This document shows, in pieces, positions 11,043-33,943 of a DNA stretch of 39,344 nucleotides. Under the pieces are notes generated by a model, which was not told where the DNA came from, ran no database searches, and was given only the letters and a program-made list of their open reading frames with translations. Positions within the stretch are counted from its first letter, which is position 1; every line of letters begins with the position of its first letter. The translations under genes were made by a program, and so were the position numbers. Source of the stretch: a virus; the UHGV virus genome UHGV-0031292. The stretch is one strand, 5' to 3'.

Positions 11043-11404
11043 TGGACTATTCACAGTTAAGTGATTTTGAAATTAACGTGGCGGTATTCGAAGCCATTCA
11101 TAGCGGATCACCGGATTACAAAGAAGGTGAGAATGGCGATATGGTGTTTGTCTCATTTGAGGGAGACATTGTAAACGGAGACGCAGTTGAAGTAGAAGTT
11201 GAGCGCGGATCCTTTAACCCATGCGCAAACCCAGCAGACGCATGGCCGATTATTGCTGATAACGGAGTTAACATTCTCTGGGACTGGAACGAAAGCGGTT
11301 TGCACGGTGCTTCTGCCAACCCTATTTGGGAGCATGAGCATGAAAATGTTCTCCGAGCCGCCATGATTGTATTTCTCATGATGCAGGAAAATCAGAATGG
11401 CTAA
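11042..11404 (+). CDS. Hypothetical protein
   Basis: ATG after GGAGGTGAAGTG; acidic 120-aa product. Confidence 0.45.
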   Translation: MDYSQLSDFEINVAVFEAIHSGSPDYKEGENGDMVFVSFEGDIVNGDAVEVEVERGSFNPCANPADAWPIIADNGVNILWDWNESGLHGASANPIWEHEHENVLRAAMIVFLMMQENQNG

Positions 11405-11735
11405 ATCAGCAGCAGAGCGCAAAGCTGCTCAGAGAGCCAGACAAGCTGCATCTGGTGTGCGTAAGCTGGAAATTGTGCTTGATGCTCAGGAAATTGAAAT
11501 GCTTGAGCGTAACTGTGCCGCGCGTCGCCCCGGGCGTGCGCCTTACGAATTTGGTGAGTATATAGCGTTACTGATCCGCCAGGATGATGCACGCGTGCGC
11601 GGGCGTATAAAATCGATCAGCAGAAAATGTTGCGGTAAGTGCGGCGAGAGAGTTCCAGTTAATTCATGCCCGTGTAATGGTGACTCGCAATGCTGGGTGA
11701 CTAAAGGCTGGCATGAAACGAAATTAATAGTGTGA
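11397..11735 (+). CDS. Small basic protein with C-terminal Cys-rich zinc-ribbon-like motif; candidate late-gene regulator (speculative)
   Basis: 112-aa ORF, last early-right gene before terminator and packaging genes; motif CCGKCGERVPVNSCPCNG. Confidence 0.4.
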   Translation: MAKSAAERKAAQRARQAASGVRKLEIVLDAQEIEMLERNCAARRPGRAPYEFGEYIALLIRQDDARVRGRIKSISRKCCGKCGERVPVNSCPCNGDSQCWVTKGWHETKLIV

Positions 11736-11743
11736 CATGTCAC
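11732..11743. promoter_or_regulatory. 12-bp perfect palindrome GTGACATGTCAC overlapping the stop codon of the 11397 gene (copy 1 of 2)
   Basis: Identical 12-mer at 31923-31934. Confidence 0.4.
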
Positions 11744-11784
11744 GAGTAGATTATGCATGATGAATTTGATGGGTTTTGAATACT

Positions 11785-11810
11785 GCCGCCAACTATGGCG
11801 GCTTTATTTT
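11785..11810 (+). terminator. Intrinsic terminator between early-right and packaging genes (GCCGCC-AACTAT-GGCGGC plus TTTATTTT)
   Basis: Perfect 6-bp GC stem and T-rich tail; lies inside the N-terminal extension of the track ORF 11776-12450. Confidence 0.55.
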
Positions 11811-32119: not shown

Positions 32120-32214
32120 TGTGAAAAATTTCCATCTATAAGCCACCTCAATGTGGCGTCAATGAGTGTAGCACTGACTTTTGTTTCGTCCACAAAAAAG
32201 CCCGCAGCGCGGGC

Positions 32215-32739
32215 TTACCAAAACTTGTACCACGGGGATTTATCCTTCAATGGACAATCCTTCCATCGTGTGGCCAACCATTCATATTCTTTAAAATATG
32301 TGTTTATGTTTTCTTTTTCTCTAATGGCTTGTATAAGAGGTAGCGCAATCTGATAGTTATTTACAACGGAGCTGTAAAATACTTCCTTAATCATGGTCTC
32401 ATCATAAGTTTTCCGCTTCACGCTCACAGCCATGCGTTCGTAGAAACCTAGACAGTAAATTATTTCTCTCTTCTCTGTCTTTTCTTCATCCGTAAGATCA
32501 GCCTGCCCATTGCTTGGATACATATAAGAGCGGAATGATTTGTTCGATTCGTGAATGCGGCGCATAGTAGATAGGCCTTTCTTATAATCTACATCAAACC
32601 TGCTTTCACCAAGGAATACTGAAGTGTGTACTTTTCTCGCTGTATTTACATTATAAATAATAGTAGCGATAGCTATGAACAAGCCAAGCGAAACCGCGAC
32701 TGCACTTACGATTTGAGCCACAGCCATGGCAAATTGCAT
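32215..32739 (-). CDS. Membrane-anchored protein of unknown function (N-terminal TM helix plus about 140-aa soluble domain), AT-rich accessory gene
   Basis: 179-aa ORF (GTG at 32754 or ATG MQFAMAV); single N-terminal hydrophobic helix; low GC. Confidence 0.5.
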   Translation of the reverse strand: MQFAMAVAQIVSAVAVSLGLFIAIATIIYNVNTARKVHTSVFLGESRFDVDYKKGLSTMRRIHESNKSFRSYMYPSNGQADLTDEEKTEKREIIYCLGFYERMAVSVKRKTYDETMIKEVFYSSVVNNYQIALPLIQAIREKENINTYFKEYEWLATRWKDCPLKDKSPWYKFW

Positions 32740-32772
32740 TTCTTCACTTAACACAAACTGTCTCCAGACATG

Positions 32773-32795
32773 AAAACGGGGCCTAATGGCCCCGT
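32773..32795 (-). terminator. Intrinsic terminator on minus strand (CGGGGCC-ATTA-GGCCCCG plus TTTT) between antirepressor and membrane-protein gene
   Basis: 7-bp GC stem followed by UUUU on the minus strand. Confidence 0.5.
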
Positions 32796-32963
32796 CATTA
32801 AACTATCCGAATGTTAAACGCCTTCGTACTCGTCAAATTTTCTCATGTGGGCTCCTCCTGTATCGGTGCCTAATCGCTATGGATCACCCGTGAGGTAATA
32901 GTAAGCTATTCACCTGCAATCTGTACAGAATTATTTAAAGGCACATCCCTGTGCCGCCGCCCG

Positions 32964-33689
32964 TCAGAAGAACCCTGCTTTGTCGTTGATGTACTCCGCG
33001 TGCGTCTGGATATCACGCAGGCATTTGCTCACACCGACGATGTAGCAGAACATGGTGGTCAGCTCCGCCGCCGCGCCCGATACGTCGTGCCCGTCGTCCT
33101 GTAACTGGTTCAGCAGATTCATCAGCAGTGAGTTCTCCGTCAGGCCGAGAACACCAGACGGAGAATGAATCAGACTGCGGTAGCCGGGCTTCAGTGGGGC
33201 GCTGTAGGTTTTGTTCTCTATCTTCATTGCCTGCATCACTGCTGATGCTGTGGCGTTGGCTACCTGGTCGGCAACCATCTTTATGCGTTCTTCCTGCGGG
33301 AGCGAGTTTTTAATGTAACTTCCGGTGCGGCGGATCTGAGGAAGAACCTCACCTGTAACCCATTTACGAAAGCGGTAGGGGATAGTGCCTGGTGTCACTG
33401 CGTCGCGGCAGCGGAGGATCAGTGTGTAGAGGCCTGACTCGGAGATGATGTTGATCTCTTTTACTCGGCTGTCAAAAATCGCACGATGTTCATGCCCTAT
33501 GTTGAACATAGACCTTTCATCATCATCCAGTTTTTCAAGTGCTTGGGTGACGTTTTGGATACGCAGCGCACTACAAACGTCTTGGGCTACAAACCATGGT
33601 TGGCCATCGATAATGATGGAACGGATAGGGTTAACAGATTCAAATTTGAAGATGGCAGTTTGAGCATTAGCCATGGTGGTTATCTCCAC
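32964..33689 (-). CDS. Bro-N (KilA-N-like) domain antirepressor
   Basis: 241-aa ORF with N-terminal Bro-N-like segment (FESVNPIRSIIIDGQPWFVAQDVCSALRIQN); C-terminal region paralogous to the 33990 gene. Confidence 0.7.
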   Translation of the reverse strand: MEITTMANAQTAIFKFESVNPIRSIIIDGQPWFVAQDVCSALRIQNVTQALEKLDDDERSMFNIGHEHRAIFDSRVKEINIISESGLYTLILRCRDAVTPGTIPYRFRKWVTGEVLPQIRRTGSYIKNSLPQEERIKMVADQVANATASAVMQAMKIENKTYSAPLKPGYRSLIHSPSGVLGLTENSLLMNLLNQLQDDGHDVSGAAAELTTMFCYIVGVSKCLRDIQTHAEYINDKAGFF

Positions 33690-33706: not shown

Positions 33707-33827
33707 CACCGCAACGCCAATTACTGGTGGTGAACTGGACAAGGTTGGCGTACCGGCCTAAGTGGTACCGGCGTCCTTTCGGACCCCTGCCCAGCCCACC
33801 ATAATTCGGATATAGCTGTGCTTAACG

Positions 33828-33852
33828 CATAAAAAAACCACGTCTGGCGTGG
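33828..33852 (-). terminator. Intrinsic terminator on minus strand (CCACG-CCAGA-CGTGG plus T7) between the two antirepressor-like genes
   Basis: Plus strand reads AAAAAAACCACGTCTGGCGTGG. Confidence 0.55.
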
Positions 33853-33943
33853 TATGCGCCACTTAGTAACTCGGGACGCCAATCCCGGCACTGGATTTTG
33901 CCAGTGCCCGATTACTATGGCACAAGAGGAGTGCGATGTAAAT

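Follow-up and report, generated by a model that had tools for sequence, protein, structure and literature searches.

A conserved ten-codon mini-ORF upstream of a DUF4760 gene in a Uetakevirus genome, and the phage mini-ORF family to which it belongs

Does a ten-codon open reading frame (ORF) in front of a terminator regulate the gene behind it, or is its peptide the product? This question is raised by a locus on the minus strand of the virus genome UHGV-0031292, analyzed here as one stretch of 39,344 nucleotides (the window), which is a phiV10/epsilon15-type (Uetakevirus) Escherichia coli podophage or prophage. The locus comprises a mini-ORF for the peptide MRKFDEYEGV, a hairpin and a gene for a 179-aa protein of the DUF4760 family. 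From the sequence alone, the first-pass annotation had described a strong Shine-Dalgarno (SD) sequence, a 10-codon ORF, a terminator and the 179-aa gene, and had proposed either a leader-peptide attenuator or a micro-protein. All of these elements are present as described on the minus strand (Table 1), and the hairpin, which it put at 32773-32795, was placed correctly within 1 nt.

Conservation and coding signature of the mini-ORF

The mini-ORF reads ATG AGA AAA TTT GAC GAG TAC GAA GGC GTT TAA on the minus strand, and 5 nt (CCCAC) separate its SD sequence AGGAGGAG from the ATG. Because a first pattern scan was biased towards the ORF itself, loci were re-ascertained through the DUF4760 protein, by protein homology alone (42-99% identity). 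As a result, 59 loci with 35 distinct leaders were gathered from Escherichia, Klebsiella, Enterobacter, Kluyvera, Atlantibacter, Buttiauxella, Xenorhabdus, Dryocola and Entomohabitans as well as from IMG/VR prophages. A strong SD sequence, a 10-11-codon ORF and then a hairpin or terminator abutting the ribosome-binding site (RBS) of the DUF4760 gene were found at 58 of the 59 loci, so that conservation in relatives, which the first-pass annotation had named as a check, is borne out in homologues collected independently of the mini-ORF. Comparison of these loci shows the order of SD sequence, mini-ORF, terminator and DUF4760 gene to be conserved down to about 42% DUF4760 identity. The SD sequence occupies the equivalent position in all homologous leaders, with variants AGGAGG, GGGGGTT and AAGGAGGT, and the ORFs end in [FY]-D-E-[FY]-[DE]-G-[FVLC], as in MRKFDEYEGV, MKKFDEYEGV, MKKFDEFEGF, MKKLFDEFDGF, MKKWFDEFDGF, MTKAYDEFDGF, MKRMDEFEGC and MRYSDEYEGL. 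A profile search for DUF4760 relatives beyond Enterobacterales returned the same clade again and none further out.

Variation within the mini-ORF is that of a coding sequence. In 29 distinct ORF sequences compared over their last 7 sense codons, minority bases occur 6, 12 and 65 times at codon positions 1, 2 and 3, respectively, and this third-position bias indicates that the peptide sequence is selected. Three residues, Asp-6, Glu-5 and Gly-2 (counted from the end), are invariant in the 29 ORFs and are encoded by mixed synonymous codons (GAT 18/GAC 11, GAA 10/GAG 19 and GGT 10/GGC 19). Pairwise comparisons give synonymous to non-synonymous differences of 917:592 when read in the mini-ORF frame, and of 82:1596 and 231:1319 when read in the two alternative frames. 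Between the window and locus L079, which share 85% DUF4760 identity, the ORF carries four synonymous changes and one R-to-K change, and the 5' untranslated region (UTR) and the spacer differ throughout. More generally, the peptide is kept across leaders whose flanking RNA cannot be aligned. At the level of sequence, these patterns show the mini-ORF to be a real gene under purifying selection for its amino-acid sequence. All 32 viral contigs returned by a pattern scan for the 5' part of the ORF encode exactly 10 codons. In all RefSeq E. coli records examined, this mini-ORF is unannotated, and the Prokaryotic Genome Annotation Pipeline (PGAP) calls the DUF4760 gene only.

The hairpin and tests for alternative RNA structure

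The hairpin behind the mini-ORF is built from the arms GACGGGGCC (32796-32788) and GGCCCCGUU (32783-32775) with the loop AUUA, giving a GC-rich stem of 9 bp with a dG of -17.9 kcal/mol. UUUUCAUG trails the 3' arm, the U-run being only 4 long, and we attribute to this short T-tail that a consensus terminator scan of the window did not list the hairpin among its terminators. In the family, a hairpin stands at the equivalent position in all but one of the 35 distinct leaders, GC-rich and usually with 5-7 U, and its stem varies in a compensatory manner (GCGGAGCC/GGCUCCGC, GAGGCGGAGA/UCUCCGCCUU, AUAGGGC/GCCCUAU, ACGGGGCC/GGCCCCGU and GCGGGGCU/AGCCCCGC). These hairpins were assessed sequence by sequence instead of by alignment, as RNAalifold on a MAFFT leader alignment, in which the hairpin was misaligned between clades, recovered just 3 terminator-stem pairs. 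The distance from stop to stem ranges from 7 to 47 nt (47 nt at locus L053), with a mode of 16-19 nt.

A search for an antiterminator in the predicted 121-nt transcript of the window found none, the terminator folding on its own, and the 95 nt upstream of the terminator fold no better than shuffles (z -0.05). No conserved antiterminator-type pairing was found across the DUF4760 leader family. Two further pairings were considered. Masking of the DUF4760 RBS by the spacer, an idea from single-sequence folds, was rejected family-wide, with a mean duplex energy of -2.2 kcal/mol versus -2.7 kcal/mol for shuffles. A spacer acting as anti-SD of the mini-ORF is real in a single clade, FDEFDGF, where 31% of leaders reach p<=0.05, and is absent in the clade of the window. 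In addition, no Rfam covariance model matched across 32770-32900 at E<=1, and Tandem Repeats Finder (TRF) reported no tandem repeats in 32700-33000.

A wider family of phage mini-ORFs

A scan of IMG/VR for DEFDGF-stop returned more than 120 stretches, compared with about 5 expected by chance according to our own estimate, and roughly one third of them are DUF4760 leaders. Variants ending in DEFEGF-stop fall into the same context groups, and the window-type DEYEGV-stop mini-ORF was found only with DUF4760. A metagenome scan gave more copies, plus a visible random background. All four glycine codons (GGT, GGC, GGA and GGG) are used in the motif across the family, and the changes observed within the MYDEF[DE]GF group are synonymous when read as mini-ORF codons and non-synonymous when read in the frame of the overlapping gene. 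Sequence comparison thus shows that the mini-ORF belongs to a wider phage family of 8-21 codons, ending D-E-[FY]-[DE]-G-[FVLC]-stop.

The stand-alone (orphan) copies occur in a variety of settings. In Proteus-type lambdoid phages, Q, a terminator and an SD sequence precede M[YLFH]DEF[DE]GF-stop, which is followed either by an overlapping 52-aa ORF or by a hairpin and a convergent small membrane-protein gene, with lysis genes beyond. Other copies are last cistrons whose start overlaps (ATGA or GTGA) the stop of the preceding gene, which encodes a member of the Sf6 gp66/N4 gp49 family or a metallophosphatase; downstream of them lie GTGACATGTCAC, a terminator or both, and beyond these a convergent gene (L139, L172, L174 and L178). 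T4-like Karamvirus phages of Enterobacter carry a 21-codon form, MFSLRKFDAEDVDFFDEFDGF-stop, between a-gt.2 and gene 47, and the PG7 record annotates it as hypothetical protein gp053, making it the sole annotated family member among the phage records examined. In the cargo of a P2-like hotspot (L133), MKKKRMNDEFDGF-stop is followed by a hairpin and then a 174-aa gene. Among the neighbours of orphan copies, which include the N4 gp49/Sf6 gp66 family, metallophosphatase, a ClpX-type zinc-finger protein, Ead/Ea22, a holin and DUF4282, no common theme was found. Tandem-motif forms such as DEFEWCDEFDGF and DEFEGFDEFDGF also exist.

Several details of these copies were recorded alongside. The gene overlapping the start of MKKKRMNDEFDGF-stop (L133, 1104-1475) codes for 123 aa, and its product has a ClpX-type C4 zinc finger (PF06689, E 3e-18). 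Tandem duplication of the motif was seen in L131, L158, L161, L166, L175, L201 and L184, with MKDEFEWCDEFDGF-stop, MLDEFEGFDEFDGF-stop and MLDEFEWSDEFDGF-stop, and L184 has two successive mini-ORFs, MILDEFDGF-stop and then MPCVLDEFEGFDEHPDF-stop. The palindrome GTGACATGTCAC lies between orphan M[KN]DEFDGF-stop mini-ORFs and their terminators in L139, L140, L172, L178, L185, L191, L279, L298 and L309. The idea that the motif is a C-terminal tail of recognizable proteins (SSB-like) was rejected as well: the longer ORFs with this ending, a Dit tail protein and unknowns, show no relationship to one another and are about as numerous as expected by chance.

One orphan copy, MHDEFDGF-stop, lies in the window itself, on the opposite strand (Table 1). 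Its surroundings are, in order, a 112-aa Cys-rich 'transcriptional regulator' gene (11397-11735), GTGACATGTCAC, the mini-ORF and a terminator, beyond which come two operator palindromes (described below) and then the terminase genes. This phage therefore has two family members, each just upstream of a terminator. In the Salmonella relatives PAT1, epsilon15 and SPN1S, 22 unrelated nt stand where the window has MHDEFDGF-stop, so that the mini-ORF is a lineage-specific insertion at this junction. The palindrome GTGACATGTCAC, here at 11732-11743, comes directly after the regulator stop codon in every Uetakevirus relative examined. In Enterobacter/Klebsiella Uetakevirus relatives (L400, L401, L405 and L407), a promoter with a LexA-box-like sequence, TACTGT-N8-ACAGTA, is present at the MHDEFDGF-stop junction, and the gene after it is annotated as UmuD-like in L407.

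Genomic setting and expression signals of the cassette

The cassette lies downstream of a BRO-N antirepressor gene (ant). In addition to isrK and the C4 antisense RNA, the C4 a1/b1 targets matched their Rfam models in the same minus-strand region (33723-33920; 44 bits, just under gathering); isrK, a1/b1, C4 and the BRO-N antirepressor form a P1/P7-type immI antisense control module, here in a podophage. Homology with relatives extends from the stop codon of ant across a promoter-like element as far as GGGTGA/TCC (32884/32883), breaks there and resumes at the downstream terminator, and this break identifies the mini-ORF, the hairpin and the DUF4760 gene as cargo of a moron slot. This exchangeable slot, bounded by ant and the downstream terminator, spans 32198-32884. 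In the equivalent slot, TL-2011b (L005) holds a YafO-family toxin and a small ORF, and IAI39-type prophages (L006-L008) hold a 211-aa PHROG-1349 protein. PADLOC gave no match, and the ZX5 paper holds nothing on the cassette region.

Among 5,426 complete genomes of E. coli, 41 carry the full cassette. Another 11 E. coli genomes (IAI39, ETEC4090, EC0026B and others) have 32883-32801 nearly unchanged and the terminator and DUF4760 gene replaced: behind the mini-ORF come another hairpin, which is AT-rich and lacks a T-tract, and the unrelated 211-aa gene (PHROG 1349). The junction in these genomes, GATAGTT/TAATGACGGGG, falls between the mini-ORF and the terminator. Judged by these junctions, the mini-ORF is a module separate from the terminator and the DUF4760 gene.

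We infer that the elements at 32898-32927 are the promoter of the cassette, although a consensus promoter scan did not list them. TTGCAG is only 10 nt from TACTAT in the window because of a 7-nt deletion, and the alternative -35 element TGTACA is at 18 nt. In relatives, TTGCAr, 16-18 nt and TAnnAT precede the leader, the hexamers and spacing being conserved and the spacer sequence diverged, and locus L010 keeps the promoter-like hexamers and spacing despite a wholly different upstream context. The 7-nt deletion is shared by the window and 11 other copies and takes out a G-tract from the promoter spacer. The length of this G-tract is strain-variable (32904-32921 on the minus strand; L002-L009, L024, L034 and L040), with 16-18 nt between TTGCAG and TACTAT. 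Variation in G-tract length may switch the cassette promoter on and off.

A palindrome of the type ATTACC-N5-GGTAAT overlaps the start region at the cassette promoter and is predicted to be an operator of the prophage repressor. With up to 2 mismatches (<=2), 19 copies were found in the window versus 1.13 expected; they are mostly located at the heads of transcription units. The epsilon15 record annotates a matching sequence as a 'repressor' protein_bind feature, and the palindrome occurs upstream of 19 of the 35 distinct DUF4760 leaders, in other genera as well. The cassette is thus probably under prophage-repressor control.

Table 1. Features of the window around the two mini-ORFs and of the antirepressor region.
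Feature	Position	Strand	Description and source
Mini-ORF	32814..32846	minus	ATG 32846-32844, 10 codons, TAA 32816-32814; read from sequence
Shine-Dalgarno AGGAGGAG	32852..32859	minus	GGAGG core 7 nt from ATG; sequence
Spacer, mini-ORF stop to terminator stem	32797..32813	minus	17 nt
Terminator-like hairpin	32773..32796	minus	between mini-ORF and DUF4760 gene; folds
DUF4760 gene	32215..32754	minus	179 aa; GTG start 32754; GGAGA 32765-32761; Pfam PF15956 E 8e-31
Closing terminator, strong	32198..32216	minus	consensus scan; homology with other-cargo relatives resumes here
Promoter-like elements	32898..32927	minus	-10 TACTAT 32903-32898; TTGCAG 32919-32914; alternative -35 TGTACA 32927-32922
Palindrome ATTACC-TCACG-GGTGAT	32883..32899	minus	predicted prophage-repressor operator at cassette promoter
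Operator palindromes	210, 5232, 5294, 6006, 6391, 8313, 8375, 11821, 11839		palindrome scan
Operator palindromes (continued)	14741, 15359, 32883, 33943, 34323, 37240, others		palindrome scan
Second mini-ORF, MHDEFDGF-stop	11753..11779	plus	8 codons + TGA
Intrinsic terminator	11785..11802	plus	5 nt past second mini-ORF; z -2.62
isrK	33907-33831	minus	Rfam, 67 bits
C4 antisense RNA	33806-33723	minus	Rfam, 66 bits
BRO-N antirepressor (ant) gene	33689-32964	minus	upstream of cassette

Possible functions of the mini-ORF

The explanation that we tentatively favour is that the micro-peptide is the functional product and that a leaky terminator keeps DUF4760 low relative to it. The mini-ORF would then be a translated micro-gene, the promoter-proximal cistron of a two-gene moron cassette downstream of the antirepressor gene, with the proposed order of promoter and repressor operator, SD sequence, 10-codon ORF, 17-nt spacer, terminator with a weak U-tract, SD sequence, DUF4760 gene and strong terminator. 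Most transcripts would end at the hairpin, yielding an RNA of about 120 nt that encodes the peptide only, and a minority would read through into the DUF4760 gene, whose product is predicted to consist of an N-terminal transmembrane helix and a helical domain. The peptide would consequently be made in large excess over the membrane protein, and the peptide itself, not the act of its translation, would be functional, acting on DUF4760 as its partner or ligand, or on a separate target of its own. A ribosome at a stop codon covers about 10 nt downstream, and the stem starts 17 nt past the stop, so a terminating ribosome is out of reach of the stem here. This useless ribosome geometry, the occurrence of the motif as a terminal cistron and in tandem, and its persistence without DUF4760 are the reasons for our preference; the tandem-motif variants suit a binding epitope, not a stop-proximal arrest signal, and mccA of the microcin C system is a documented precedent for the layout and dimensions, which we count in favour of a functional micro-peptide.

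Several points weigh against this explanation. Such short free peptides are expected to be short-lived, and apart from MccA, which is an enzyme substrate, we know of none with 8-11 residues in the cytoplasm whose function in enterobacteria has been demonstrated. One DUF4760 locus (L091, 1 of 59), whose upstream region is replaced, does without the mini-ORF. Conservation next to the stop codon is also a hallmark of termination-arrest peptides. In addition, the clustering of stop-to-stem distances at 16-19 nt holds across clades with unrelated spacers, hinting at a positional cis-acting constraint, and in most orphan contexts the stop is just 2-7 nt from the hairpin, as expected if a stop-bound ribosome occludes it.

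The last three points lead to a serious possibility, namely that the nascent peptide acts in cis: its C-terminal residues would slow or arrest release at the stop, and the parked ribosome would modulate the hairpin, downstream translation or mRNA stability. Downstream expression would then depend on the translation state, an attenuation in the broad sense resembling TnaC or drug-sensing leader ORFs. This would account for a tiny ORF with a strong SD sequence and for conservation packed into the last 6-7 residues, and the hairpin is always downstream: a ribosome held at the many orphan stops close to it would cover the 5' arm, the stop of the second copy in the window is 5 nt from the terminator stem, and the DUF4760 leaders have their modal spacing. 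Beyond the hairpins of orphan copies lie co-directional genes that could be controlled, such as the holin in L266, gene 47 in PG7 and the 174-aa gene in L133, and in microcin C it is ribosome binding at the tiny mccA ORF that controls a downstream terminator (PMC4231749). On the other side, the stem at the 32814 locus lies beyond a terminating ribosome, an alternative pairing is neither present in the window nor conserved in the family, and the copies in L139, L172 and L174 are terminal cistrons facing convergent genes, with nothing to gate. Internal duplicates of the motif are left unexplained, and the L051 leader, which has lost its stop so that the ORF runs 4 codons further, and the 47-nt spacer of L053 do not fit either. 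A functional micro-peptide and a cis-acting one are not mutually exclusive; mccA combines a peptide product with control of termination by ribosome binding.

The remaining explanations fare worse. A conserved RNA, either a small RNA (sRNA) or a cis-acting motif with an incidental ORF, is very unlikely: the predicted transcript of about 120 nt ends in a terminator, as an sRNA would, and the spacer of one clade is complementary to the SD sequence of the mini-ORF, but substitutions gather at third codon positions, the peptide is kept amid unalignable flanks, Rfam gives no match at E<=1 and the SD:spacer pairing is absent in the clade of the window. Superficial is the resemblance to a classical amino-acid leader-peptide attenuator (trp/his/pheA), in which the position of the ribosome picks antiterminator or terminator. 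It shares the anatomy of short ORF, terminator and gene only; the family peptides have no regulatory codon runs, amino-acid sequence is conserved and codon content is not, the downstream gene is not biosynthetic, and without an antiterminator (z -0.05 for the upstream RNA, family-wide pairing tests negative) it fails its defining test, so that we consider it highly improbable. Of what the first-pass annotation proposed, the anatomy of tiny ORF, terminator and gene is conserved, selection on the peptide supports the view that the mini-ORF is translated and has a role, and an attenuator mechanism finds no support; its micro-protein alternative fits the comparative data better. Hardly tenable is a relic or chance ORF, with the mini-ORF either left over from the 5' end of a gene that was otherwise lost or formed by an accidental SD sequence and ATG in the 3' UTR behind ant. 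The locus does coincide with a mosaic junction, and ending the c4-ant operon might be all that the terminator does, but the coding signature is conserved over 42-99% DUF4760 identity, and a relic of a longer gene was rejected because no longer version exists among the 32 viral loci.

An extension of the favoured explanation, which we regard as unlikely though worth stating, would make the peptides with the C-terminus D-E-[FY]-[DE]-G-[FVLC]-COOH (8-21 residues) a new class of phage micro-peptides that act in trans, including a role like that in toxin-antitoxin (TA) systems. The peptide would be a labile antidote or ligand of a membrane-anchored, EP-domain-like DUF4760 effector and would be kept in excess by the terminator. 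Phages are known to carry antidote mimics against TA-type systems, and the orphan copies (the one at 11753-11779 and those of T4-like, lambdoid and P2-like phages) could be stand-alone versions, for example counter-defence mimics. If this holds, type III TA systems and their phage-encoded pseudo-antitoxins would have a peptide analogue here.

Significance and comparison with known systems

ORFs of 8-11 codons escape the gene finders behind most such records, and the signature of the mini-ORF is among the clearest signals of purifying selection possible at such a length. Its family spans virulent as well as temperate phages of unrelated types in Enterobacterales. If the peptides act in trans, they would rank with the smallest known gene products that have a function and would provide a handle on DUF4760, a widespread prophage membrane protein; if they act in cis, they would constitute a new portable termination-stall module set before terminators, including at the early/late boundary. 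In the library of papers that was searched, no description of the mini-ORF, the peptide motif or DUF4760 regulation was found.

Among known systems, trpL, hisL and pheL share a short ORF followed by an intrinsic terminator and differ in the regulatory codon runs and antiterminator that are lacking here, where the peptide is conserved and codon content is not. Arrest peptides of the TnaC type and the ErmCL and CatA86L leader ORFs are similar in their short upstream ORF, stop-adjacent conservation and downstream RNA element. However, they have no sequence similarity to the mini-ORF, no Rho site or SD-masking helix was identified in the window, and the motif also occurs as a terminal cistron. The RNA element is beyond the reach of a stalled ribosome at the 32814 locus (17 nt from the stop) and within reach at the second copy (5 nt). 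Type III TA loci (ToxIN, CptIN and TenpIN), which have a terminator between antitoxin and toxin (PMC3401426), resemble the cassette in the order of promoter, small product (inhibitory in TA), terminator setting the ratio and larger protein, and in their location on mobile elements. Unlike them, the cassette has no tandem RNA repeats, its small product is selected as a peptide and not as RNA, and DUF4760 is not a ToxN/AbiQ endoribonuclease.

The closest likeness is to mccA-terminator-mccBCDE of microcin C, in which a 7-codon first cistron with a 5' UTR of 29 nt yields a short transcript of 105-107 nt, the ratio of short to read-through transcript is 20:1, and upstream RNA weakens the terminator until a ribosome binds the tiny ORF (Zukher et al. 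2014, PMC4231749). Both systems have a very short first cistron with its own SD sequence (7 versus 10 codons here), a short 5' UTR (29 versus about 43 nt predicted here), a short transcript (105-107 versus about 120 nt predicted here) and an intercistronic intrinsic terminator about 20 nt past the stop, with downstream genes reached by read-through only. They differ in that the peptide and gene in the window have no sequence relation to MccA or MccB, that a single membrane-anchored helical protein, and no MccB-like adenylating enzyme, is encoded downstream, and that no terminator-interfering upstream structure is predicted in the window. By this analogy, the DUF4760 cassette would at most work like the mccA-type family, without being a member of it. 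An arrangement of this type is already known; what seems to be new is the conserved peptide family, together with its distribution over phage types.
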